Shown here in pieces: positions 4,614 to 32,104 of a stretch of 40,432 nt of DNA (positions are counted from its first letter, which is position 1; each line of letters opens with the position of its first letter). The notes under the pieces were generated by a model, which saw nothing but the letters and a program-made list of their open reading frames with translations, had not been told where the DNA came from and searched no databases. Source of the stretch: an uncultured Thermoleophilia bacterium (GTDB lineage: Bacteria > Actinomycetota > Thermoleophilia > UBA2241). The position numbers and the translations under genes are program-made. Location: contig CAVQSP010000001.1 in NCBI GenBank assembly GCA_963715985.1, positions 1-40,432 on the forward strand, read 5' to 3'.

Positions 4614-6302
<1,689 letters not shown>

Positions 6303-6385
6303 GCGACGCAGACGGCTCAGCGAGCGGGGCGCCGAAGGTGCACCGCTCCCTGACCGACGCAGGTGGATCGACGCAGGCTAATCTC

Positions 6386-6420
6386 AAGGGGGCGGCGGCT
6401 GACAGGCCGCCGCCCCCTTT
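6386..6420 (+). terminator. Intrinsic terminator hairpin after the helicase gene
   Basis: AAGGGGGCGGCGGC-loop-GCCGCCGCCCCCTT inverted repeat ending in TTT. Confidence 0.7.
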
Positions 6421-6428
6421 GCTATACT
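6399..6428 (+). promoter_or_regulatory. Putative tRNA promoter
   Basis: CTGACA (6399-6404), 18 nt, TATACT (6423-6428), ending 13 nt before the tRNA. Confidence 0.55.
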
Positions 6429-6441
6429 GCCGTTCCTGCGT

Positions 6442-6517
6442 GGGCGACTAGCTCAGTTGGGAGAGCGCCAGCTCGACAAGCTGGAGGTCGTTGGTTCGAA
6501 ACCAACGTCGCCCACCA
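6442..6517 (+). tRNA. tRNA-Val(GAC)
   Basis: Acceptor GGGCGAC/GTCGCCC, D arm GCTC/GAGC, anticodon arm CCAGC-TCGACAA-GCTGG, T loop TTCGAAA, encoded CCA; 76 nt. Confidence 0.93.
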
Positions 6518-6776
6518 CGTATCTGCTCGGGCACACCGCTTCTCTGCCCAGATGCCCCTGCCGTGTCGCGCGGCCAAGTGAACCCGGTGCGGCCCAGAGC
6601 GCACATCCGAGACTGACACGCCACAGGGCCGCGTCGCGCAACGAGCAAGCGACGCCGCGGTCACCCAGGAGGACTCAGCGGCAGGCGCGAGGCGTAGCAG
6701 GCACCGTGGCCGCTGACGGCGCCCGGCCGTCGTTGCCTCGCCGGCCCAGGCGGACTTGCGCCGACGTCGTCTCCGC

Positions 6777-7600
6777 TCACCCCAGGGCGGCAGCCGGTTC
6801 GCTGATGAGGATCTCCCCCTTGCCGAGCCAGCAGGTGTCGCCGCTGAAGCGCCGGTGGAGGCCGCCCCATCCGCGCTCCGGTGCAGGCACGCCCCGCTTC
6901 TCCAGGTGGGCCGCGTACACGCGCAGGAACGTCGGCTCGTAGGTGCAGGCGTAGAGAAACGTCGGCAGAAGCTTGAGCGGCTCATACGCGATGATCGTGC
7001 CCCTGGCCATCCAGGCGCCGGCGCGGATGCCCGCCCTGCCGAGCAGGAAGAGGGTGCCGCCCTTCATCTGCATGCCGACGAAGTCGCCGACCCGACCGCC
7101 TATGCTGATGAGACCACGCAGCATGCGCATCCCTACCTCGATCCCGGCGTCGCCGTCGATAGGATCTCGCCACCCCGCATGCCCACGGTGCTGCCACGGT
7201 AGGCCGCGCCGACCTGCCCGCCGGCCCTGCCGTGGACGTGGATGAGACCGCCGGTCATCTCCGCGCCCAGCCAGTCCGCGGCGTCACCGTCGACGGTGAT
7301 GGTCCCGCCGCTCATCGACGCTCCGAGATGCATCCCCGCGTTGCCGTGCACGGCGATGCTGCCCTGCGTCATGCCCCGGCCGATCCACTTGACCTGGGCG
7401 AGGTCTCCGTGCAGTTCGAGAGACGCGCTCCTCTCGCCCTCCACCTCGAAGAAGTCCCCGAGGCGCCTCTGCCGATTACCCAGAAACACCGGCAGAGCCA
7501 AGATGTCCGCGTGTGTCAGACCGGCGATGACGTCGGGCGAGAGCGCCTCCGCTTCGAGCGGGGTCGCCAGATCCTCTTTGAGAGTCGCTACGACGCTCAC
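6777..7600 (-). CDS. fwdC: Formylmethanofuran dehydrogenase subunit C, copy 1 (one frameshift near 7150)
   Basis: PLEAEALSPD, RLGDFFEVEG, repeated GxxMxGGxIxVxG beta-helix units, GAAYRGSTVGMRGG, terminal FSGD..GKGEILI. Confidence 0.88.
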
Positions 7601-7674
7601 CTTGCCGTCACCTCGCTCATGTCCGCGCCGAGGACACCCTCGACAGCCGGATCCTGACTCGTCGCTCGCGCGCT

Positions 7675-8980
7675 TCACTGGCCCCGGGCGGCGGCCCTGA
7701 GCGCGACCTCTTTCAGGAGTCCGCCGCATGACTTCCTCGTCGGTCGGGTATGGCGACTTGAGCGACGGCCGCACGTGCAGAGGGACCTCATCCATGCGGT
7801 AGACGGTGCCGGGGGCGCTGATGCCCGTCACGGCGGTGGTGATGTGCACGCGAGCGAGCTCGGCTGGTGTGCGTGACCTTCGGGTCCAGGACGATCGTCG
7901 GCACCCGCGCGCATGTGGTCGATGGCCGGCTTGGGCATCGTCGCCCCGGGGTCCGCGGCGAGCACCAGCACGGCATCGACCTCGCCGCGGGTGAGCAAGT
8001 CGATGGTGGTGTACTCGCCGGGGTTGTAGCGCGGATAGCCGCGGCTGAAATCGACCCCGAACGGATAGCCCGTCAGCCAGCTCGTGACGGCATCGGCGCC
8101 GGTCACGTTGCCGTGACCGCGCAGCGGCATCGCCACGAAGCGGGTGTAGTCGTTCATCTCCACACCCAGCGTGAGTACGGCGGCCGCATTCATGTACTTG
8201 CCGCGGGTCATGGTCAGGCCCATCCCGAAGAACATCGCCCCATAACGGGCGCTCTTCATGCGGTCCGCCAGGTCCTGGAGCTGCTCCAGCGTGAGACCCG
8301 TCTCCTCGAGGCACTGCTGGTCGACGCGACGGCCCTTGATGAGCGCACGCAAAGCCGTGAGAGCCTCGAAATCCTTGCCCGGGCGGATCTGAAGGAAGAT
8401 GTCGGCGACGCGCGCACTCGGCGTGTTGCGGATGTCGACGAGGACGACCGTCCGCCCTTTGCGGCCCTCGGGCGTGTACTTGCCCTTTCGGCATCACGGA
8501 GTAGCGGGTGAAGTGGCGAGGATGGCACTCCGACGGATTGGCGCCCCAGAGGATGACCAGGTCGGCCCGATCCCTGATCTCGCCCAGCGTGGCTTTTGAC
8601 CTACCGCCCAACTGGGCGGCCATTTCGCTAGGGCCGTGTCACAAGGATGAATGGCTGTCGACCACCCCTCCGAGCCGCTCCGCGAGCAGCACCGCCTCGC
8701 GCTGGGTCTCGCACGTCGTATTGCTCAGGCCGTAGATGAGAGGGTAGTGAGCATCGACGAGGATGTCCGCCGCCGCCGCCACCGCGGTATCGAGATCGGC
8801 GGGCTGTCCGTCGATGAGCGCCGCCGGATAGTGCGCCTCGGCATCATGGTTCGTGAACCAAGCCCCACCCAACGCGCACGCGTGCTTGGCCTTGACGATG
8901 CGATCCCCCTCGGTCTGCACCTCGATGTCGTCGCAGACGCAGCCGCAGAACGTACACACGGCGTTGGTGACGGTAGCCAT
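7675..8980 (-). CDS. fwdB: Formylmethanofuran dehydrogenase subunit B, predicted selenoprotein (UGA at 8639-8641; several frameshifts downstream)
   Basis: CTFCGCVCDD..HAC Fe-S motif, SSL[UGA]HGPS, TLGEIRDRADLVILWGANP..HPRH..RYS, PLRGHGNVTG, WLTGYPFGVDFSRGYPRYNPGE, GTVYRMD. Confidence 0.9.
8600..8632 (-). promoter_or_regulatory. Bacterial SECIS-like hairpin
   Basis: 3' of the UGA: stem GCCGCCC/GGGCGGU with apical loop AGUU starting 25 nt after the UGA; lower CCUA/UAGG pairing possible. Confidence 0.7.
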
Positions 8981-9048
8981 TGCTTACTCCTCAGCCGATC
9001 GATTGACCGATGTTATCGAGCGCCCGCACGGGGCGCAGCCCTGAATGC

Positions 9049-9224
9049 TCAGCCCAGTGCCCCGCCGAGGAAGCTGCCGCGGACGCGGCGCGGAAGCCAC
9101 AGATCGTCTCCGATCTCCTCCCACGGCAAGACATCCTCGTCGCGGGTACCTTGCGGTTCGCGCCGGGCAGGTTGAATCTGGGCTGTGTGTCGTTGGAAGC
9201 CCTGGATGTCTCCACGATCGTCAC
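9049..9224 (-). CDS. Possible small hypothetical protein between fwdD and fwdB (would need one frameshift)
   Basis: AAGGAG upstream; pieces ..ETSRASNDTQPRFNLPGANRKV and RDEDVLPWEEIGDDLWLPRRVRGSFLGGALG*; no family recognised. Confidence 0.3.
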
Positions 9225-9249
9225 GCTCCTTCACTACGTCTCGGACCGG

Positions 9250-9600
9250 TCACTGGCCCCGGCTCGTCTGGCCGGTGGCGGGCTCGACCTCGACCTCCCA
9301 GTTCTTCTGCGATGGCATCCCCGTGCCGTCCGTGTCTCCGCCCATGAGCTGACACGTGGGCGGCCCGTAGGGGACGAAGACCATGCCGGACGGGAGATCG
9401 CCCTCCGCGCAGCTGTACACGGCCTCGCCCCATTCAGTGCGCACGCGGACCGGATCGCCGGGCGCGAGGCCCATGTCCGCGAGATCCTGCGGATTCATGT
9501 CCAGAGTGCTGACCACCGACAGGTACTCATCCCTGAGCTTGCCCATGTTCTCCTGCTGGCCCTGCTTGATCGTCCGTCCGGCGACGAACACACAATGCAT
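9250..9600 (-). CDS. fwdD: Formylmethanofuran dehydrogenase subunit D (molybdopterin dinucleotide-binding)
   Basis: AGRTIKQG, MNPQDLADMGL..GDPVRVRTEWGE, GMVFVPYGP, TDGTGMPSQK; AAGGAGG RBS before ATG at 9600. Confidence 0.88.
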   Translation of the reverse strand: MHCVFVAGRTIKQGQQENMGKLRDEYLSVVSTLDMNPQDLADMGLAPGDPVRVRTEWGEAVYSCAEGDLPSGMVFVPYGPPTCQLMGGDTDGTGMPSQKNWEVEVEPATGQTSRGQ

Positions 9601-9830
9601 ACGGTCCTCCTTCGCCCCGGGAGCGTATCGGGTCAGAGCTTCGTGCTGCGAGATCGCAGAATGATACAGCATCGTTGCCGGCGGCAGAGCAGTGACACCG
9701 GATCGCCGGACGTGGGCCCGGCCGACGCCTGCCGGGCAGGGGGTCGCCCTCCTCGAGGGTCTGTGGCCTGAAGCTAGGAACGGCCTCGATCGGGAGGATG
9801 CCATCCGCTATATTTCTCTATAGTAGACCA

Positions 9831-9859
9831 TTGACAGTCAAGAGCTGGCTCCATAGAGT
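9831..9859 (+). promoter_or_regulatory. Sigma70-type promoter of the main C1 operon
   Basis: TTGACA (9831-9836), 17 nt, TAGAGT (9854-9859), with an AT-rich stretch upstream. Confidence 0.65.
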
Positions 9860-10074
9860 CGCCGGCGCGATACGAAGGCTACCCCTGCGGAGGGGATGGT
9901 CTGGCTGTTCCGAAGTTGCCGCACCCTGACAGCCGGGCTGCCGAGATGGTATCGGTGGGCCGGCTTTCGCGTCTCCGAGACCGGTCTCGAGGCGGAACGG
10001 AGCGAGGAGGTGAGAGGCCTCCCGGCGCCGCGCCGGTCGACGGCCAGTTCGTCGCCAGTGAGCGGCTTCACGGG

Positions 10075-10090
10075 AAACAAACAAACAAAC
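10075..10090 (+). repeat. (AAAC)4 tandem repeat in the operon leader
   Basis: AAACAAACAAACAAAC in GC-rich DNA. Confidence 0.9.
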
Positions 10091-10105
10091 GGCAATGTCT
10101 GCGTC

Positions 10106-10129
10106 GTGCCTGTGATAGGCATTTCTTTT
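10106..10129 (+). terminator. Leader terminator/attenuator-like hairpin with U tract
   Basis: GTGCCTG-TGA-TAGGCAT followed by TTCTTTT, 25 nt before the first ATG. Confidence 0.45.
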
Positions 10130-10153
10130 CACCAAACGGAAGGAGGGTCAGGT

Positions 10154-10357
10154 ATGCAGTGTTATGTGTGCGCGAAGGCCGGCAAACAGACCGAAGCGGT
10201 CGGCATCTGTATCGTGTGCGGCATGGGTCTCTGCATGGATCACGCGCTCCGTGAGGATGTCGATCTCTGGGAAGGGGGCTACCCGTTCCCGAGCCAGAAG
10301 GCCAAGAAGAAGTTGCCGCGCATCCTCTGTGCGGAGTGCAAAGCGGTGGTGGGCTGA
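10154..10357 (+). CDS. DUF2180-like small Cys-rich (Zn-ribbon) protein, 67 aa
   Basis: MQCYVC..AVGICIVCGMGLCMDH..GGYPFP..LPRILCAEC; AAGGAGG RBS. Family recognised from memory. Confidence 0.75.
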   Translation: MQCYVCAKAGKQTEAVGICIVCGMGLCMDHALREDVDLWEGGYPFPSQKAKKKLPRILCAECKAVVG

Positions 10358-10480
10358 GCGGAGCCGTCTCGGGCTGAACTGGCCAGCCGGACCGCGTATC
10401 AGCGGTGACGAGGGCCGGAAGGCGATGTCCACAGGTGTATCCACGATCGGGAATCGGTCAATCAAGGTACGGAGGTAGAG

Positions 10481-12013
10481 ATGTCGCTGTACGAGAAGAT
10501 GATCAACGAGGCAGTCGGCGCGACCAAAGCGGTGTTCGGTGTGAACAAGGCCAACCGCGGCGGCACTTTCAAGGTCACCGATGCCAAGCCGTACGTCGAC
10601 GCCGTGAACAAGATGACGGCGTACGAGGGGCAGTCCCAGGAAGTCATCGACCTGCACGTGAAGTCGGTCAACGCCCACTTCGACGTCATGACCTCCCTCA
10701 CGGAAACGGTGCGTCCTGAGGACGATCCGTTCGTCGAGCACTATCAGACGCCGCCGATCCTCGAGATCATGTATGAAGAGGATCCCGCCTTTAAGGCTTC
10801 GATGTGGAAGTTCATCGACGCCATCGCCGCCAACAAGGCGCTCGTCGGCCTCGAGGCTGCGCGCCGCTACGGCGGCATGTACGGCCCGACGTGCGTCGTG
10901 GACTTCGCGATGTCGGTCGGCTCGGTGCCCAACCTCGTGAACCAGATCCTGGTCCCGATGGACATCCCGGCCGACCACAAGAAGACCATCCTCGCCTGCA
11001 AGTCGTGGGGCATGAACACCTCCTACGGCCTCGCCGGTGCCTTCCGCGCCGCCGTCGAGTCGGGCAAGACCCTGGCCGACGCTGAGCAGGCCGAGGTCGA
11101 CATGCTGCAGTTCGTGTACCGCGAGCCCTCCGCCGCGCAGGCGCAGCTCATGGCCACCCACAACCTCGGCGGCCACGGCCCGCACAGCTCCTTCGATGTG
11201 GTCAAGTACATGGCTCAGTACAAGGAGGCCATGCGTCCCACCATCGTCGCCGCCATGAAGGCCGGCGTGCACTACGCCAACATCACCGCCGTGCCCGCCT
11301 ACTGCGTCGGCGACGTCGCCCACCACATCGCGCAGTCGGCGTACAACATGTTCAACGACGACATGGTGTTCGCGATCTACGAGGCCGTCACCGGCGTGCT
11401 CGAGAACACGCTGAACCGCGCCCTCAAGGCCGACGCCTTCAAGGGCCCCTACGATGTGCTCTCCGTCGCCACCGGCTCCACCGCCTGCGCGACTGCCTAC
11501 ATCCTCTGGAAGGACAGCTTCACGGTCCCGATGGTCATCGACCTGCTCAACAAGCGCTTCCACAACTACGCCGCCATGCATCCGGATCGCGGCGAGGCCG
11601 ACGAGCTGCACAACGTCGACTTCATGGACATCCTCAAGCGCGGCGAGCACATCCTCGACATCAAGCCGATCGGCGCCGGCGGCAAGGTCAAGGGCGTCGA
11701 GGTCGACCTGAGCACGGTCGACGGCAACGATGTCATCAGCAACCCGCAGCGCTACACGTATCCGGCCTGTGCCATCACCCAGCGCTTCGCCGCCCTGATG
11801 ACGCTGTCCGACTTCCCGTGCTTCCTGACGCCTGAGTGCACGACGGCGACCCTCATGACCAACGCCATCGCCGTCGCTCCTGGCACTCCTGGCGCCCCGG
11901 TTCGTGCCTGCAAGGACTGCGCGACGTGCGCCCTGATCAAGAGGAACGTCCCCATGGCGACCGGTCGTGGTTCCGGCGCCGTGGGCTACTGCCAGTGGAA
12001 CGTGGCCGTCTGA
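10481..12013 (+). CDS. DUF2193-like protein, 510 aa, with C-terminal CxxCxxC
   Basis: LYEKMINEA..RG..FKVTDAKPYVDAV, PEDDPFVEHYQTP, YGPTCVVDFA, KSWGMNTSYG, C-terminal CKDCATC; GGAGG RBS; intact ORF. Family recognised from memory. Confidence 0.75.
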   Translation: MSLYEKMINEAVGATKAVFGVNKANRGGTFKVTDAKPYVDAVNKMTAYEGQSQEVIDLHVKSVNAHFDVMTSLTETVRPEDDPFVEHYQTPPILEIMYEEDPAFKASMWKFIDAIAANKALVGLEAARRYGGMYGPTCVVDFAMSVGSVPNLVNQILVPMDIPADHKKTILACKSWGMNTSYGLAGAFRAAVESGKTLADAEQAEVDMLQFVYREPSAAQAQLMATHNLGGHGPHSSFDVVKYMAQYKEAMRPTIVAAMKAGVHYANITAVPAYCVGDVAHHIAQSAYNMFNDDMVFAIYEAVTGVLENTLNRALKADAFKGPYDVLSVATGSTACATAYILWKDSFTVPMVIDLLNKRFHNYAAMHPDRGEADELHNVDFMDILKRGEHILDIKPIGAGGKVKGVEVDLSTVDGNDVISNPQRYTYPACAITQRFAALMTLSDFPCFLTPECTTATLMTNAIAVAPGTPGAPVRACKDCATCALIKRNVPMATGRGSGAVGYCQWNVAV

Positions 12014-18330: not shown

Positions 18331-19965
18331 ATGATGCTCGGTATTCTCGGTGGGCGGATCTACGACCCGCGCAACGGCAAAGACGGCGAGATCGGCGACA
18401 TCTGGGTGGAGGACGGCCGGGTCGTCGCGGCTGAGGACGTGGACCGCGAGACGGCGCAGACCGTCGACGCCACCGGCCTGGTGGTCATGCCGGGCGGCGT
18501 GGATATCCACGCGCACATCGTCGGCGGCGAGGTGAACTCGGGCCGCAAGCTACAGCCGGAGGATCACCGCGGGCACGAGCGCGCACGGTCCGGAGACCTC
18601 CGCGCGGGCACCGGTGGCGTCGTGCCGTCGACCCACCTCACCGGGTATCTCTACTCAGAGCTCGGCTACACCACGGTGATGCAGGCGTCCGCGGCGCCGC
18701 TGGCGGCGCGGCACGTCCACGAGGAGCTCGAGGACGTGCCGAACATCGACAAGGGCGCCCTCACCGTCATGGGCAACAACCACTTCGTCATGCAGGCCAT
18801 CGCCGACGGGCGGTACGACAAGGCCAAGGACTACGTTGCCTGGCTCCTCGGGGCCAGCCGCGGCTATGGCATCAAGGTCGTCAACCCGGGCGGCGTCGAG
18901 AACTGGAAGTGGGGCAAGAACGTCGCCGAGCTCGACGACGAGGTGATCGGCTACGGGGTCACCCCGCGGCAGATCGTGCAGACCCTGGCCCGGATCGCCG
19001 ACGATCTCGGGCTTCCGCACTCCGTGCACGTCCACGGCATCAATCTGGGGCGGCACACGAGCGCGCGCACGACCGTCGAGATGATCGACGCCCTCGACGG
19101 CCACCGTGCGCACCTCTGTCACCTTCAGTTCCTGAGCTACGGTGCCGGCCGCACGCATGTGCACAAGTCAGAGGCGGCCACCGTGGCGGCGGCGGTCAAC
19201 GCCAACCCCAACATCACCGTCGACGTCGGGCAGCTGGTCTTCGGCGATGCCACGACGATGACGTGCGACGGCCCCCTCCAGTACGCCCTTCATCGGACCA
19301 CCGGCCACAGGTGGGTCAATACCGACGTGGAGTCCGAGACCGGCGGCGGGATCGTGCCGATCACCTACAAGGCGAGCAATCCGATCAACGCCACGATGTG
19401 GCTGACCGGCATGGAGCTCTTCCTGCTCATCGACGACCCTTGGCGGGTCTTCTTGAGCACCGATCACCCCAACGCCGGTCCCTTCACGAGCTACCCACAG
19501 ATCATCAAACTGTTGATGGACCGCGAGTACCGGCGCGAGATGTTCGACAGCCTCAGCCCGCGGGCGCGGAAAGGAGCCCTGCTCCCCGAGCTGGACCGCG
19601 AGTACTCGCTGAACGAGATCGTCATCATCAGTCGCGCGGGTCCCGCGCGGACGCTGGGCCTCGAGCGCAAGGGCCATCTGGGTGTCGGCGCCGACGGCGA
19701 CATCGCCGTGTACGACGATCTCGCCGACAGGGAGGCCATGTTCGCGCGCCCGCGCTACGTGTACAAGGCCGGCGAGCTCGTGGCCCGCGACGGCGCCGTC
19801 GTCACGGACGTGAGCGGGCACGCCTTCTCCGTGGCGCCGGAGTACGACATCGCGCTCGAGGACGAGCTGCGCGAGCACTTCAGGGAGTGGTACACGGTGT
19901 CGTTCGACAACTACTCTGTTCTCGCCGGCGACGATCTCCCCACCGAGATCGTCGCCTGCACGTGA
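18331..19965 (+). CDS. fwdA: Formylmethanofuran dehydrogenase subunit A (amidohydrolase, FwdA/FhcA)
   Basis: GG.IYDP.NG, PGGVDIHAHI, GIKVVNPGG, LPHSVHVH, E.ETGGGIVP, STDHPNAGPF. Confidence 0.93.
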   Translation: MMLGILGGRIYDPRNGKDGEIGDIWVEDGRVVAAEDVDRETAQTVDATGLVVMPGGVDIHAHIVGGEVNSGRKLQPEDHRGHERARSGDLRAGTGGVVPSTHLTGYLYSELGYTTVMQASAAPLAARHVHEELEDVPNIDKGALTVMGNNHFVMQAIADGRYDKAKDYVAWLLGASRGYGIKVVNPGGVENWKWGKNVAELDDEVIGYGVTPRQIVQTLARIADDLGLPHSVHVHGINLGRHTSARTTVEMIDALDGHRAHLCHLQFLSYGAGRTHVHKSEAATVAAAVNANPNITVDVGQLVFGDATTMTCDGPLQYALHRTTGHRWVNTDVESETGGGIVPITYKASNPINATMWLTGMELFLLIDDPWRVFLSTDHPNAGPFTSYPQIIKLLMDREYRREMFDSLSPRARKGALLPELDREYSLNEIVIISRAGPARTLGLERKGHLGVGADGDIAVYDDLADREAMFARPRYVYKAGELVARDGAVVTDVSGHAFSVAPEYDIALEDELREHFREWYTVSFDNYSVLAGDDLPTEIVACT

Positions 19966-19977
19966 GGAGGCCGTTGC

Positions 19978-20955
19978 ATGCCTGACGACCCAGGGTGCCG
20001 TGTGCAGCGAGACACCCAGCTGGCCCCGCCGGCCGTGTCCGTGGCTCTCAGCCGCGCCGGCGTCACCAATCTGCGCCGCATCATCTCGATCACGGACGGC
20101 GGCAAGGCCGAGCTGTTCTACGCGACGCTCGACCTCTTCGCCGATCTCAGTCCCGAACACGCGGGCGTGCACATGTCGCGCTTCAGCGAGGTCGTGGAAG
20201 ATCTCGCTGAAGGGCTTACGCGCAGACCCTTCGCCGACATCGAGTCGCTCGCCAGACGCATGGCCGAGGAGGTCGTCGAGACTCAGGAAGCCCTGCGTGC
20301 CGAGGTCCACATCAAGGCGCAGTCGCCGATCACCAAAGAGACGCCGATGACGCACCGCCCTACCGAGCAGCTCTACACGCTGGTGGGCATCGCCGCGGCC
20401 ACCCGCACGAGGACGCGTCTTCTGGTGGGGGTGGAAGTGAACGGTCTGACGGTCTGCCCGTGCGCGCAGGACATGGTGCGTGGCATGTCCTTGGACCGCC
20501 TCTGCGAACACGGCTATAGCGAGGAGGAGGGCGAGCGCATCCTGAGCCTGTTGCCCATCGCCTCGCACAATCAGCGCGGCAGGGGCACGCTGCTGATCGG
20601 CTCGGAACGGCGCATTGGAGCCGAGGAGCTCGTGGCGATCGTCGAGGGATCGATGAGCTCCGAGATCTACGAGCTCCTCAAGCGCCCCGACGAGCTGTAC
20701 GTGGTCGACAAGGCGCACCGCAATCCGCGTTTCGTGGAGGACGTGGTGCGCGAGATGGTGCGCCGGGTCCTCGAGGCCTACCCCGACCTCTCGGACGACT
20801 CGTTCATGCTGGCCCGCCAGGAGAACTTCGAGGGCATTCACGAGCACAACGCGTTCGCGGAACGCTACGGCACCATGGCGGAGATCCGTCCCGAGCTCGC
20901 CGGCGAGGCGTACGCCGGGCGGCACACTGCCTTGAGCGAGTGGCTCGCCGGGTAG
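19978..20955 (+). CDS. mptA: GTP cyclohydrolase MptA (FolE2 family)
   Basis: LSRAGVT, GVHMSRF, TVCPCAQ, SHNQRG, ELLKRPDE, NPRFVED, ENFE.IH.HNA.A. Confidence 0.88.
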   Translation: MPDDPGCRVQRDTQLAPPAVSVALSRAGVTNLRRIISITDGGKAELFYATLDLFADLSPEHAGVHMSRFSEVVEDLAEGLTRRPFADIESLARRMAEEVVETQEALRAEVHIKAQSPITKETPMTHRPTEQLYTLVGIAAATRTRTRLLVGVEVNGLTVCPCAQDMVRGMSLDRLCEHGYSEEEGERILSLLPIASHNQRGRGTLLIGSERRIGAEELVAIVEGSMSSEIYELLKRPDELYVVDKAHRNPRFVEDVVREMVRRVLEAYPDLSDDSFMLARQENFEGIHEHNAFAERYGTMAEIRPELAGEAYAGRHTALSEWLAG

Positions 20956-23452: not shown

Positions 23453-24342
23453 ATGCACATCAACGGAGTGGAGATAGAGGACACGTTTGCCGAGGCCTTC
23501 GGAATGTGGGGCTCACGCCTGGTGGTCACGGGGGAGGACCTGGACTGGGCCCGCACCGCAGCCGAGGCGGCGACCGGCTTCGCCACCTCCATCATCGGGT
23601 GTGGCTGCGAGGCCGGCACGAATGATCTGGCTCCCGGCGAGCAGACGCTCGACGGGCGTCCGGGGGTTGCGGCGCTGGTGTTCGCCACGTCACGGGGCAA
23701 CATGGAGACGCAGCTGCTGCAGCGCGTGGGTCAGGCGGTGATGACCTCGTGCCACATCGGCCTGCTACAACGGTCTTGTCGCCGATGAGAAGGTCAAGGT
23801 GGGCGGCAAGCTCCGCTACTTCGGCGACGGCTTCCAGCGCAGCAAGTTGCTCGACGGCCGGCGTCTGTGGCGCGTCCCGGTGATGGATGGCGAGTTCGTC
23901 GTGGAGGAGAGCTTCGGCGTCGTCAAGGGCGTGGGCGGCGGCAACTTCTTCATGATGGCCGGCAGCCTGAGCGCGGCGCTCGCCGCGGCGCGAGCGGCTG
24001 TGGCCGCGATGCGTGCCGTGCACGGCGCGATCATGCCGTTCCCCGGCGGCGTGGTGCGCAGCGGCAGCAAGGTCTCCTCGCGGTACAAGGGGCAGCACGT
24101 CTCCAGCAACACGCCGTACTGCCCGACCTTGCGGGCGGAAGAAGGCAGCGCTCTCGTGGACGGGCGAGAACGCCGTGCTCGAGATCGTCGTGGACGGGCT
24201 CACCGAGGCGGCCGTGGCCGAGGCCATGCGAGTGGGCATCGCCGCCGCCTGCCTGCCCGGCGTGACGCGCATCTCCGCCGGCAACTACGGAGGCTCGCTC
24301 GGGCAGTTCCACTTCGCCCTGCGCGAGCTGATGAGTGCCTGA
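23453..24342 (+). CDS. ftr: Formylmethanofuran:H4MPT formyltransferase (frameshifts near 23750 and 24160)
   Basis: INGVEIEDTFAEAF, TGFATSIIGCGCEAG, DGRPG, LRYFGDGFQ, GVGGGNF, PFPGGVVRSGSK, EIVVDGL, ISAGNYGG.LG. Confidence 0.92.
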
Positions 24343-24355
24343 GGAGGCTGCGGCG

Positions 24356-25145
24356 ATGGGCTGTATCGCCTGTGCGGCGCTGGTGCTCGACGGCGCCTGC
24401 GTGACGTTGACGCGCAAAGCGTCGAGCCCGCGCCCAGTGGACGCGGCACAGCGTCTGCCCGGATCGCTTCATGGGTCTCGGGCAGACCGAGCATCGCGGC
24501 GCTCCCGGTCGTCTGCGGCGGTACCCGCGATGGCGCTCGGCGACCTCTTCGAGATGGACGGCATCCGGCACCTACAACATCGCCGTGTGCGGCGATCTCA
24601 CCGGCGTGGAGCAGATCGGTCAAGGGATGACCAGGGGTCGAGTGACCGTAGCGAGTGACGTGGGCACTGCACCTCGGGGCCTGCATGAGCGGCGGCGAGA
24701 TCGTGGTGGAGGGCGCCGCCGGGGATGGGCTGGGCTCCGGGATGTCGGGCGGCCGCATCGTCGTGCAGGGCGACGCCGGGCCGCGACGCGGGCGCGCGCA
24801 TGGGCGGCGGCGTCATCGTGGTGCTCGGCGACGCCGGCGAGCTACACCGGAGCCGGCATGACCGCCGGATCGATCGTCGTCGCCGGCAGGCTCGGCGGAC
24901 TCCCCGGGAACAGGGATGGCCGGGCGGCACGGTCGTCGCCTTCGGCGAGGCGCCCGAGCTGCCGTCGACGTTCCGCTATGCCGGGCCTAGACCGGCCCGC
25001 CTTCCTGGGCTCCCTCCTGCTCGGCCTCGAAGAAGAGGGTCTCGTGAAGAGCCCACGGGTCCCCGAGGGCGAGTTCCGGCGCTTCGTGGGCGATATCGAC
25101 AACGGTGGTGAGGGGGAGGTGCTGGTCCGTGATCAGTCTGAATGA
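24356..25145 (+). CDS. fwdC: Formylmethanofuran dehydrogenase subunit C, copy 2 (FhcC-like; many frameshifts)
   Basis: Pieces across frames: [58 protein letters not shown]...GEGEVLV. Confidence 0.78.
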
Positions 25146-26094
25146 GACAGGCTGCCGCCGTCGTCGAGAGGCTGAGGGCGGCCGCGGAGCCTCTGGGTGT
25201 GGCGGTATCCGAGCTCGAGAACGGTGCCACGGTCGTGGACGCCGGGGTGGAGGTCGACGGGACGCTGGAAGCCGGCCGGCTGTTTGCCGAGGTGTGCCTG
25301 GGCGGGCTGGCGGACGTCCAGTTCCGCGCAGCTCACCTCGAGGCCTCGTCCTCCCGGGCGTCGAGGTGAACGTGCACCGCCCGGTGCTCGCCTGCATGGC
25401 TTCTCAGTACGCCGGGTGGGCGCTCAACGTGCCTGCCACCGAGACTCCGAAGAAGTACTTCGCCATGTGCTCCGGGCCGGCCAGGGCGCTGTACCGTGGC
25501 GACCCGATCTTCGCCGACATCGACTACCGCGATCCGGCGACCGTGGCGGTGCTGACGCTGGAGGCGGACCGCCTGCCGCTCGCTGGAGGTGGCGGCTGGG
25601 TCGCCGGCAAGTGCGGGGTCGCGACAGACGCGCGTGATGCTGCTGGTGGCCCCCACCGCCAGCCTCGTGGGCTCCGTGCAGATCGCGGCGCGCATCGTGG
25701 AGACCGGGCTCCACAAGATGCACGAGGTGGGATTCGACATCGACACCGTTCGCTCCGGCTTCGGCTCGTGCCCCCTGGCTCCGGTGGCGGCCGACGATCT
25801 CGCGGCCATCGGGCGCACCAACGACGCGGTCCTCTACGGCGGCCGCGCCTGGTACACGGTCGAGACCGACGATGCGCTCATCGAGAGCGTCATCGAGCGC
25901 CTGCCCTCGGCGCGTCGAGCGACTACGGTGTGCCGTTCGGGGAGCTCTTCCGCCGGTACGGTGGCGACTTCTACAAGATCGACCCGCTGCTCTTCAGTCC
26001 CGCCGAGATCACCATCACCAACGCGGCGAGTGGCAGGACCTTCCACGCCGGCCACGTCGACACGGACGTGCTGCGCGCATCGTTGTTCGCGTGA
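25129..26094 (+). CDS. mch: Methenyl-H4MPT cyclohydrolase (frameshifted)
   Basis: [78 protein letters not shown]. Confidence 0.92.
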
Positions 26095-26964
26095 AGGTCG
26101 CTATCCTGGGACAGAACAGGAGGCTGGCATACCGAGAGCCTTCGCGAGGCGCTTGCCCGGCGCGGGATCGCGGCGGAGTGCTACCCGGTGACGCAGCTGA
26201 CGGCGCGGGTCACCGAGAGGCCGCGCCTGACGGCCGGGGCGGTGCCGCTCGACGACTGCGACGTCGTGTTCGTGCGCGCCATCCCGACGGGGTCGCTGGA
26301 GCAGGTGATCTTCCGCATGGACGCCTTGCGGATGCTCGAGCACGACGGAGTGAGGGTCGTCAATTCGGCGCAGGCCATCGAGCACGGCGTCGACAAGTAC
26401 TACACGTCGGCGCGACTGCACGACGCCGGTCTGCCGACGCCCCGCACCGTCGTCGCCGAGCGCTTCGACGACGCGCTGGCGGCCTACGACGAGCTCGGCG
26501 GTGACGTGGTGGTCAAGCCCCTCTTCGGCTCCGAGGGCAGGGGCATGGTCCGGGTCTCCGATGCGGACACCGCGTACCGCGTGTTTCGCGCTCTCGAGCT
26601 GGGCCGCTACATCTTCTGTGTGCAGGAGTTCGTGTCCCACGGCTGCGAGGATATCCGCGTCTTCGTCGTCGGCGGGCGCGTCATCGGAGCGATGCTGCGT
26701 CGCGGGTCGGGGTGGAAGACGAACGCGGCTCAGGGCGCCACGGGGGAGCCGATCGAGCTGGATGACACGCTCGTCAATCTGAGCGTGCGTGCGACGCAGA
26801 TCGTGGGCGCCGAGCACGCCGGCGTCGACATCCTGCCCTGCGACGACGGCAGCTACAGCGTGATCGAGGTGAACACCATCCCTGGCTGGCGCGCCTTGCG
26901 CGCCGCCACCGGCGTCGATGCGGCGCAGTGCTTGGTGGACCACGTGCTCGAGGGGATGTCGTGA
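26091..26964 (+). CDS. RimK-family alpha-L-glutamate ligase (orf5/MyfA/MptN-type; frameshift near the 5' end)
   Basis: [53 protein letters not shown]. Confidence 0.87.
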
Positions 26965-27853
26965 AGCGACTGAACGGCGTCGAGATCGCCTGGGCGGCGC
27001 AGCTGGCGTGTCTGTTCGAGGTGAGCGTCGCGAAGGCCGGCAACGTGTCGCGGAGCGCGGCCTTTGCCGACGCGCGCTTCGAGGACTTTCGCGGCCAGCG
27101 CCGTCGCTATCGGGCCGGCGCTTCGCGACGCCGGATCGGCCAGCGTGGGCGACCATGGTGGCAAGGGCGGTCGCCGACACGCATCGCCTGGTGGCCACCA
27201 ACACCAATCTCGGCATCATCCTGCTGCTCGCACCGCTGGCGGCCGCTGCGGCGAGGGGGGGCACCGAAGGCGGCCTGCGTGCAGCGCTGCATCGGGTCCT
27301 CGCGGACCTGACCGTGGAGGACGCGCGCCTGGCCTACGGAGCCATCCTTGCCGCTTCTCCGGCCGGGATGGGCGCTGTCGACGAACATGACGTCCATGAA
27401 GGAGAGGTGCTCGTTACTCTGCGCGAGGCCATGGACGCCGCGCGCGACCGTGATGCCGTCGCCCGCGAGTTCGTCACGGATTTCGCGATCACATTCTCGT
27501 TCGGTGCCGAGACTCTGCAACGCGTCTGGCAGGACGGTGCCCGGTTCTCGGAAGCAGTCGTGATGGCGTTCATCACGATCCTTGCGCACGTGCCCGACAC
27601 CCTGATCGCGCGCAAGAACGGGACCGCCGTCGCCGAAGACGTGTCGCGCCGCGCCGCGCGCGTGCTGGATGCCGGGGGCAGCTTCAGCGCGCAGGGCGGA
27701 ACGCTGCTGGCCGAGCTGGCGCTCGACCTGGCGGACGACGCTCACACGCTGAATCCGGGTACGACCGCCGATCTGGTGGCCGCCTCATTGTTCGTGTTCC
27801 TGACGGAGGGCGGGCTGCTGGGCGATGTGCCCGCCCTCACGGCGCGTTGGTGA
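26961..27853 (+). CDS. citG: CitG-family protein (orf7-type; frameshift near 27090)
   Basis: AC..EV...K.GNV, NTNLGIILLLAPL, PDTLIARK.G, NPGTTADL. Confidence 0.85.
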
Positions 27854-30686: not shown

Positions 30687-31342
30687 TCGACGCGGTCGTC
30701 AAGGTCGGCGGCAGTCTCGGGCGCGGTCCGGGCCTGGCCGCGCTGGGCGCGCGCCTCGCTGCGCTCGGCCGGGAGCACCGACTCCTGCTGGTGCCCGGTG
30801 GCGGCGCCTTCGCCGACCTCGTCAGGGAGCATGAGCCGCGCTTCGGCCTGCGGCCCAGCACGGCGCACTGGATGGCGGTCCTCGCCATGGACCAGTACGG
30901 CTATCTCCTCGGCGACCTGGTGCCCGGGTGCGGGCTCGTGCGCACGCTCGAGGAGGCGGAAGCATGTGCCCCGGGCGCCGCTGCCGTCCTCCTGCCATAC
31001 GAGCTCCTGCGGCGCGAGGACGCCCTTCCTCACAGCTGGTCCGTGACGTCGGACTCCATCGCCGCATGGCTGACTCAGATGGTGGGAGCGAACCTGCTGG
31101 TGCTTCTGAAAGACAGCCGTGGCATGGCGAGCCTGGCGCACGCGGTGTCTGGCCTTCCGTCCGCCGAGTTGAGCGTCGCCGAGCTCGCCGCCGCCGAGGG
31201 CGTCGACGGCCATCTGGCAGAGCTGGCCGGCGACGCGACCTTCCGCCTGTGGATGATCGACGGCGAACGCCCCGAGCGGCTGGCGGAGCTGCTCGAGACG
31301 GGTCGCACGGAAGGGGTCAGGCTTGCGCGATCAGGGATTTGA
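30683..31342 (+). CDS. mfnE: Amino-acid-kinase-family protein, MfnE/orf21-like
   Basis: VVKVGGSL, VPGGG.FAD.VR, AHWMA..AM.Q, LPHSW.VTSDSIA. Confidence 0.85.
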   Translation: MIDAVVKVGGSLGRGPGLAALGARLAALGREHRLLLVPGGGAFADLVREHEPRFGLRPSTAHWMAVLAMDQYGYLLGDLVPGCGLVRTLEEAEACAPGAAAVLLPYELLRREDALPHSWSVTSDSIAAWLTQMVGANLLVLLKDSRGMASLAHAVSGLPSAELSVAELAAAEGVDGHLAELAGDATFRLWMIDGERPERLAELLETGRTEGVRLARSGI

Positions 31343-32027
31343 GCCGCTGCACGGCGTCGGGGTCGATCGCGCCGTCCCGGCGGCCGTCGTGGCAGGCGGC
31401 GCCGCGAAAGCCGACGATGTCCGGCGCCAGCTCGTGCAGGAGGGGCACATCGGCGGCGCGCAGCGAGCCGGCGAGCGCGCACAGCAGACGGGCCTCCCGG
31501 CAGCACGCGACGAAGCTCTCGAGTTCCACGGCGCTGAGCTCGGTGAGGAGAGTGCCTCCGGACTTCTGGGCCGTGTCGATCATGCAGCCATCCGCACCGG
31601 CCTCGGCGGCGACGGCCGGCAGCTCGCGCGGCGGGAGAGACCCGGTCCTGCGCGCGTCCGCATAGGCGGCGGCCATGACGCGCACTGCCGGGTCAGCGTC
31701 GTGGGCGGCGCGGCACACGCCGGCAAGCAGGGCAAGGGCCTGGTCGTGGTCTCGCGGACCCAGGAGCCCCACCTTGACGTACTGCACGCCGCAGCCGGCG
31801 GCGCCTGCTGCCGCGAGGGCGGCCATGCCGGGCAGATTGGGGACGTCACCGATGGCCACACTCACGGGGATGGCCGCCGGAGTGGCCCGGCGCACGGCTC
31901 GGATCACGTGCGGGACGGCGGCGCCCAGCGACCCTTCGCGGGGATCCTTGACGTCCACGATGTCCGCGTGTCCGGCCACCGCTGCATCCACTTCGTGCTC
32001 GCCGACTACGCTGATGAGCAGGTCCAC
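31317..32027 (-). CDS. mfnB: (5-formylfuran-3-yl)methyl phosphate synthase
   Basis: LLISV...E, ADIVDVK.P.EGSLGA, S.AIGD, YVKVGL, YAD, MIDT..K, ALAGSL, GFRGAAC. Confidence 0.9.
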   Translation of the reverse strand: MDLLISVVGEHEVDAAVAGHADIVDVKDPREGSLGAAVPHVIRAVRRATPAAIPVSVAIGDVPNLPGMAALAAAGAAGCGVQYVKVGLLGPRDHDQALALLAGVCRAAHDADPAVRVMAAAYADARRTGSLPPRELPAVAAEAGADGCMIDTAQKSGGTLLTELSAVELESFVACCREARLLCALAGSLRAADVPLLHELAPDIVGFRGAACHDGRRDGAIDPDAVQRLKSLIAQA

Positions 32028-32104
32028 GACGTTGTTCCCGGCCTTTCCTCGCCAGCGGCCAGACTACATGCGCCCCCGACCGTCGCACAAGCCGGGGGCT
32101 GAGC

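Follow-up and report, generated by a model that had tools for sequence, protein, structure and literature searches.

The locus raises the question of whether an in-frame TGA at the metal-ligand position of fwdB, the gene of formylmethanofuran dehydrogenase subunit B, is read as selenocysteine (Sec) or ends the protein. The gene lies in a 40,432-nucleotide (nt) stretch of DNA from an uncultured Thermoleophilia bacterium, called the window here. The genome holding the window is referred to as G000; G018, G012 and G113 are congeneric genomes. The gene and the codon were located as follows.

7672..8980, minus strand: fwdB as assembled, with ATG at 8980 and the frame broken by single-base insertions and deletions (indels)
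8639-8641, minus strand: in-frame TGA, predicted selenocysteine codon, residue 114, with His next (U114-H115)

The 3' end of fwdB is approximate; it corresponds to the TGA at 7672-7674 if the insertion near 7719 alone is discounted. Within the stretch 8680-8621 the minus strand reads GAC AGC CAT TCA TCC TTG TGA CAC GGC CCT AGC GAA ATG, which matches exactly the letters quoted in the initial annotation, where a selenoprotein had been predicted. The open reading frames (ORFs) on the two sides of the codon, 8639..8980 (113 amino acids) and 7133..8623 (496 amino acids), were found in one common frame, and the statement that no frameshift is involved is correct at the TGA. From the comparisons given below, the codon is almost certainly a Sec codon, or was one in an intact copy of the gene. 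The explanation as a whole, a Sec-containing FwdB in a redox formylmethanofuran dehydrogenase with additional frame breaks that are assembly errors, is regarded as likely with good confidence.

In the phmmer comparison with solved FwdB chains, the TGA residue was aligned with the Cys of SVCHGPS in 8rja_B and with X in 9sfi_Q, U114-H115 corresponding to C-H in the former and X-H in the latter. The alignment supports the predicted placement of Sec at the molybdenum- or tungsten (Mo/W)-ligating Cys of FwdB. The catalytic residues of M. wolfeii FwdB are Cys118, His119 and Arg288 in the cited part of PMC6926001. Judged by the motif, the invariant R in PLRGHGN (R287 of G018; in the second frame of the window) is likely the counterpart of Arg288.

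A scan with one genome per species resulted in 591 relatives, and the best 80, all loci of named bacterial metagenome-assembled genomes (MAGs), were retained. As the nearest to a Sec-type query, these loci describe the Sec-type clade and not all FwdB. TGA was present in 79 of them and TGC in one (L036, a Gemmataceae MAG). Together with the window and G018, 82 sequences were aligned (79 distinct), with TGA at the codon in 81 and TGC in 1. TGA was also found at the ligand codon of fwdB in both congeners, G018 and G012, and the peptide 3' of it is conserved in the homologues. UGA thus recurs in the close homologues, where its absence would have counted against Sec in the initial annotation. Cys was detected at this position in 8 more distant homologues. 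A global reassignment of TGA was ruled out, since 9 of the 14 confident ORFs of the window, as well as fwdB of G018, end in TGA as an ordinary stop.

A hairpin similar to the selenocysteine insertion sequence (SECIS) was located behind the codon.

8603..8620, minus strand: SECIS-like hairpin GCCGCCC-AGUU-GGGCGGU with a 7-bp stem and a 4-nt loop, starting 18 nt after the UGA

The usual bacterial SECIS has a G in the loop and this UGA-to-hairpin distance, and the hairpin of the window agrees by that description. In archaeal Sec decoding, the SECIS is situated in the 3'-untranslated region. The minimum-energy fold of an 81-nt stretch that includes the hairpin was determined to be -36.3 kcal/mol (z -3.2). 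The hairpin is encoded inside the peptide AAQLGG, and the loop AGTT, the Gln codon CAG and the Leu codon TTG were each found in 82 of 82 aligned sequences; the gene-wide codon shares across the aligned genes are 19% of Leu for TTG and 72% of Gln for CAG. Protein constraint would not explain these frozen synonymous sites. The stem pairs were kept, in order, in 74, 82, 81, 78, 82, 82 and 82 of the 82 sequences. The changes in the stem were G-C/G-U exchanges and one double compensatory change to U-A (L039), and pair 4 was mismatched in L031 and L032.

The TGC form of the Gemmataceae MAG (L036; 3331-3405) retains the hairpin in full behind the codon, which is in keeping with a recent change from Sec to Cys.

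The initial annotation pointed to selA, selB, selC and selD as the genes on which Sec insertion would depend. In the genome, selD, selA, selB and tRNA-Sec are all present, the first three in a selD-selA-selB cluster on contig C13.

C13:101879-102703: selD (326 bits), with one in-frame TGA inside the family match
C13:103605-104978: selA (527 bits)
C13:105076-106968: selB (299 bits; 328.5 with the in-frame neighbour)
C13:139538-139635: tRNA-Sec(TCA), 33 kb from the sel cluster

Judging from its TGA, selD itself is probably a second selenoprotein (Sec-type SelD).

Other recoding-related matches were detected in the same genome. An elongation factor Tu (EF-Tu)-like GTPase (G000:C11:467811-468983) matched the selB model with 198.5 bits and has one TAG in the matched frame, which may stem from an error in the assembly, from a match running past the end of the gene or from a read-through related to pyrrolysine (Pyl). 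A tRNA-Pyl with the anticodon CTA was located by ARAGORN at G000:C13:555126-555198, and a match to the PylS C-terminal domain was found 4 kb from it (C13:559328-560053; 316.5 bits, above the cut-off). The genome seems to encode both the selenocysteine and the pyrrolysine machinery.

The type of the enzyme was derived from the conserved residues and the neighbouring gene. In the N-terminal domain, Cys residues are present at 9, 12, 14, 16 and 35, and all five are invariant in alignment A2. The role of the Cys residues of this domain is that of [4Fe-4S] cluster ligands in the cited part of PMC6926001. The gene of a cap subunit lies directly upstream of fwdB.

9250..9804, minus strand: fwdD, molybdopterin-binding cap subunit

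ORF 9250-9804 was matched by NF042908 FwdD over residues 70-177 with an E value of 1.1e-21 and 77 bits, which is below the cut-off of this model (175 bits); the model represents an archaeal 'exception' type. FhcB of Methylorubrum extorquens is a bacterial homologue from a methanopterin-linked one-carbon (C1) pathway, in which FhcA, FhcC and FhcD correspond to FwdA, FwdC and Ftr, respectively. According to the cited part of PMC6926001, FhcB has lost the N-terminal iron-sulphur (Fe-S) domain, the catalytic Cys (Ser62) and the FwdD cap, whereas the window keeps all three. An FhcB-type scaffold was ruled out because the Fe-S domain, the Sec-His dyad and FwdD are all retained, and the retained features indicate a true dehydrogenase subunit.

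The product of fwdB would thus act as subunit B, the catalytic and pterin-binding part of a true redox formylmethanofuran dehydrogenase, and the UGA at 8639-8641 would be decoded as Sec in place of the Mo/W-ligating Cys. In the proposed mechanism, selenophosphate would be made by SelD and Ser-tRNA(Sec) would be turned into Sec-tRNA(Sec) by SelA. SelB would bring the Sec-tRNA(Sec) to the ribosome on meeting the hairpin 18 nt past the UGA, to which it is predicted to bind. The enzyme built of FwdD, FwdB, FwdC and FwdA would most likely catalyse the interconversion of CO2 and formyl-methanofuran as the terminal step of a C1 route linked to methanopterin. Selenium insertion, SelB binding, the use of Mo or W as the metal and the reaction direction are all predicted from sequence; in a non-methanogen, the oxidation of C1 units to CO2 would be the more likely role.

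Apart from the TGA, the reading frame of fwdB is broken in the assembly. When the TGA is read through, a 616-codon frame results, which is FwdB-like for ~160 residues only and continues with Arg/Pro-rich nonsense, a short FwdB stretch and the N-terminal half of FwdC. In the initial annotation, ORF 7133..8623 was taken as the remainder of fwdB, and this part had to be corrected, as the true frame shifts at several single-base indels. In this ORF, FwdB sequence is confined to the first ~45 codons and to ~47 codons further on; the middle part is read in an open but incorrect frame, and the ORF closes with the N-terminal half of FwdC. At the genome's G+C content of 70%, an incorrect frame can run on for hundreds of codons without a stop, and the ORF resembled a gene for this reason.

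The course of the gene through the frames was followed with NCBIfam models on stop-to-stop ORFs. Positions 1-173 of TIGR03129 (FwdB/FmdB) were matched in the starting frame and positions 163-354 in the frame of ORF 7828-8493; a short piece in the third frame follows, after which the gene returns to the first frame for its last part. The match is accordingly split into 236 bits (positions 1-173 and a second stretch) and 222 bits (163-354), with the cut-off of the model at 327.8 bits. The orthologue of G018, which is 91% identical and intact, reached 500.7 bits over positions 1-421 of 421. It is unbroken over 449 codons, and its sole internal stop is the TGA within SSL-U-HGPSEM. The indels and the genes of the route that bear on their interpretation are the following.

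~8486, 7909, 7861, 7719, 7679, 7671, 7653: seven single-base insertions of the assembly (span 7653..8486)
7160..7161: single-base deletion of the assembly in fwdC, a gap versus G018 and G012
6777..7600, minus strand: fwdC, with GTG at 7600 and a frame switch at the 7160 deletion
18343..19920, plus strand: fwdA, amidohydrolase subunit, intact (TIGR03121, 695.7 bits, above the cut-off, no stops)
23474..24330, plus strand: ftr/fhcD formyltransferase, split over three frames by indels
25145..26085, plus strand: mch, methenyl-tetrahydromethanopterin cyclohydrolase, in four pieces split by indels

In the case of fwdC, positions 3-148 of TIGR03122 were matched in one frame and positions 140-260 in ORF 6777-7283. 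Three frames hold positions 1-94, 93-232 and 231-288 of TIGR03119 (ftr), and 1-nt insertions versus G018 were detected at 23748 and 24162. For mch, positions 4-69, 69-160, 158-255 and 255-312 of TIGR03120 were matched in separate frames.

In the DNA alignment, the insertions at ~8486, 7909, 7861 and 7719 were detected relative to G018, and they are also absent from G012. Contigs of public runs from two different studies (X1 and X2) were aligned on 6700-9900 and resulted to be 95-99% alike; runs that hold part of the stretch share 0.07-0.29 of its sampled words. All seven insertions are omitted in the X1 contigs, and those at 8486, 7909, 7719 and 7653 in X2, while a C is added behind 7160 in both. 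The X1 contigs are therefore free of all eight indels and the X2 contigs of five, which is every frame-breaking difference covered. Since the congeners and the contigs of unrelated studies are without the indels, these were read as assembly errors. A test of the phase of G+C at third codon positions over ~26 kb of the window/G018 alignment resulted in 7 confident frameshifts in each of the two, in different genes; fwdA, which is intact in the window, is shifted in G018. In G024 and G013, selA is split. Compared in this way with the relatives, the frame breaks in fwdB, fwdC, ftr and mch are very likely single-base assembly errors and not biology.

Several observations speak against this explanation or weaken it. 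The indel comparison is based on contigs of relatives and on congeners, not on the reads of the source sample, and the indel-free contigs, at 95-99% likeness, are relatives and not certainly the same strain. The density of indels in fwdB, 7 in ~830 bases, is higher than the window average and could also be given by a decaying gene. The contigs of the two other studies span the codon and list no other letter at the TGA; this is near-certain in X1 and less certain in X2, for which 3 of 13 contig differences were listed. As regards the check on reads put forward in the initial annotation, neither TGC nor TGT is listed in the contigs of other studies. Of the refuting conditions named there, all were examined and none spoke against Sec. 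In an Rfam search of 6300-10400 at E <= 1, a tRNA-Val and two chance-level matches were obtained and no SECIS family. The hairpin is situated within a highly conserved peptide, and part of its conservation is protein constraint. The fae gene (TIGR03126) was not found in G000, a genome that is 88.8% complete.

The alternative that survives best is that the fwdDBC copy of this strain is a decaying pseudogene with real indels, the UGA being a relic Sec codon. Besides the dense run of eight single-base indels between 7160 and 8486 and the origin of the compared contigs from other samples, this alternative would be favoured by the position of the fwdDBC block, which differs from that in the island of G018. 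However, ftr and mch of the window are broken by the same kind of indel, and fwdA and other genes are shifted in G018 where the window is intact, and G024 and G013 have a split selA. Noisy assemblies account for this pattern better than an alternating decay of one pathway. Moreover, in the stretches that separate the indels, the protein shares 83-91% identity with its relatives and contains no other stop, and the contigs of the two other studies carry none of the indels among those covered. A decaying copy is therefore considered unlikely.

According to a second alternative, the UGA is a true stop, and a 113-residue Fe-S fragment is produced together with a C-terminal protein from the ATG at 8623, resulting in a split FwdB without the Cys/Sec ligand. 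Gene callers output precisely two such pieces, and the ATG is situated 5 codons 3' of the UGA. In addition, 1408 database proteins of 62-198 amino acids match the 113-residue N-terminal fragment; most of the best 120 have a length of 113-120 amino acids, and the names given to the 120 are 'formylmethanofuran dehydrogenase subunit B' or 'hypothetical protein'. All seven short proteins that were fetched end in DSH[ST]SL, exactly before the Sec codon. The splitting of the gene by annotation pipelines, which had been foreseen, is borne out by these matches. On the other hand, a stop would remove the sole metal-ligating residue, next to a His and following residues that are invariant. The ATG is not conserved, as TE[IL]A and not SEMA follows HGP in 78 of the best 80 loci. 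The invariance of the TGA across phyla, the conserved hairpin and the full sel set form the signature of recoding, and a split FwdB is very improbable.

A base-calling error in place of TGC or TGT, conceivable in an assembly with many errors, is practically negligible, since the errors are indels and not substitutions at the TGA, the same TGA is present in G018, G012, G113 and 79 of the best 80 MAG loci from many studies and platforms, and the contigs compared list no different base at this site.

Public gene calls cut this gene family at its Sec codon very widely. In Planctomycetota, Acidobacteriota, Rokubacteria and some Actinomycetota, formylmethanofuran dehydrogenase may consequently be scored as absent or broken when the metabolism is reconstructed. 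The nearly invariant AAQLGG hairpin offers a simple marker to find and correct such genes. Two cautions follow for similar loci: in noisy assemblies of high G+C a long open frame can be the wrong frame, and frameshift artefacts can adjoin a real recoding event.

The kind of protein is already known. Its founding member is FwuB, a subunit B with selenium dependence that occurs in Methanopyrus kandleri and further methanogens and was reportedly verified by experiment (Vorholt et al. 1997). The same TIGR03129 family, the same Sec residue and the UH motif are shared by methanogen FwuB and the window, whereas the hairpin of the window is inside the ORF just past the UGA, as in bacteria.

The relation to the methanogen form drawn in the initial annotation holds for the residue; the Sec form is not confined to methanogens, having been reported in bacteria before. 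In the cited part of PMC4807772 (2016), Sec-fmdB was reported in Rhodopirellula sp. (P2) and unclassified bacteria, and Cys and Gly forms were reported for other planctomycetes; in table 1, the part of PMC13188914 cited here, Sec-FwdB is listed for archaea and bacteria. Sec-FmdB of Rhodopirellula sp. (P2), as described in that part of PMC4807772, is alike in having Sec for the catalytic Cys, a position next to fmdD and a selABCD host. Planctomycete loci are among the nearest relatives of fwdB of the window (62-71% identity, TGA present). In contrast to the fmdD-B-A-C order of Rhodopirellula sp. (P2), the order in the window is fwdD-fwdB-fwdC with fwdA ~9 kb away on the other strand, the host is a Thermoleophilia-like actinobacterium and the copy is frame-broken as assembled. 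The M. wolfeii FwdB (PDB 5T5I) and 8rja_B are similar to the window protein, with 169-184 bits over the N-terminal 210 residues and the [4Fe-4S] Cys and xHGP motifs in common; where the window has UGA, they have Cys (Cys118 in the cited part of PMC6926001).

In the literature covered, main texts without supplements, no description of Sec-FwdB in Thermoleophilia was found; S9 Table of PMC4807772 and comparable lists may hold more. The cited part of PMC10994693 makes no tie between Thermoleophilia and the methanopterin route. What is new is the Thermoleophilia-like member, the documentation of the hairpin and the scale of the truncated gene calls. As Sec-FwdB is already listed for archaea and bacteria in the cited part of PMC13188914, no new class of biology is opened.

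The distribution of the Sec type was determined within the class and the genus. The genome carries a tmRNA, which is a bacterial mark. FwdB was detected at E <= 1e-20 in 8 of the 151 genomes of the class-wide draw, two of which have the TGA (G000 and G113), and the genus draw added G018 and G012 as two further TGA carriers. The nearest relatives outside the genus are from Acidobacteriota (76%) and an Actinomycetota MAG (74%), followed by Planctomycetota and Rokubacteria with 62-71%. Seven other genomes of the same genus (G006, G020, G024, G011, G013, G005 and G021) hold a Cys-type FwdB with the motif SSVCHGPTGLAMQ, in which Cys is present. This type belongs to the same family (L019, 521.6 bits) and a D-like domain lies in frame before L020, but it is only 48-52% identical to the Sec type.

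Further forms were observed in the class. G113 has two FwdB copies that are 75% and 51% identical to that of the window (C313:2669-3148 and C369:789-1250), with one TGA in each match. L025 (G038:C4:416765-417235) is without the catalytic Cys and has AVGAGPAG instead, in which it resembles the methylotroph FhcB scaffolds. Sec, Cys and ligand-less forms of FwdB thus all occur in the class.

The position of the block differs between G000 and G018. The fwdC-B-D block (window 6758-9623; L027 = G018:C14:25494-28351) lies beside a tRNA-Val in the window and ~17 kb further along the island in G018. In G018, the block is flanked by direct repeats of ~155 bases that are 76% alike, and both match a single stretch of the window, 26829-26977. 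The shifted block could be due to rearrangement, insertion or misassembly; its position and the flanking repeats hint at transfer or rearrangement. It is tentatively proposed, with somewhat less than even confidence, that fwdD-fwdB-fwdC is a horizontally moving selenium-dependent cassette which gives a few Thermoleophilia a true redox formylmethanofuran dehydrogenase. The proposal is based on the higher identity of the Sec type to Acidobacteriota and Planctomycetota (62-76%) than to the Cys type of its own genus, on the detection of the Sec type in G000, G018, G012 and G113 and of any FwdB in 8 of the 151 genomes drawn from the class, and on the different block positions and the repeats in G018. 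If true, a methanopterin/methanofuran route, hardly described for Thermoleophilia, would be present in a bacterium that also encodes the pyrrolysine machinery.

By its gene content, the window is best described as an island for the methanopterin/methanofuran route. In addition to the genes given above, the following features were located in it.

6442..6517, plus strand: tRNA-Val(GAC), found by ARAGORN and Rfam tRNA (65.4 bits), bounding the fwdDBC block on one side
19966..20952, plus strand: GTP cyclohydrolase of the FolE2/MptA type (PF02649, E 2.2e-65)
31320..32063, minus strand: 4-(hydroxymethyl)-2-furancarboxaldehyde-phosphate (4-HFC-P) synthase, MfnB-type, of methanofuran biosynthesis (PF04476, E 1.8e-76)

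The FolE2/MptA-type gene would have a role in pterin cofactor synthesis. Further genes of the island encode a pterin-binding protein, two ATP-grasp ligases, and DUF447, DUF1464 and DUF2193 proteins. From the end of ftr to the start of mch (window 24162-25154), a cluster of ~13 single-base insertions versus G018 was counted in 1 kb, which suggests that the assembly is of very low quality in this region. The DUF2193 protein ('conserved in archaea'; 10409-12010, plus strand) was matched with an E value of 1.3e-224 and has no NCBIfam match; its gene is situated between fwdD and an aquaporin-type MIP gene, and it may be part of the C1 island.

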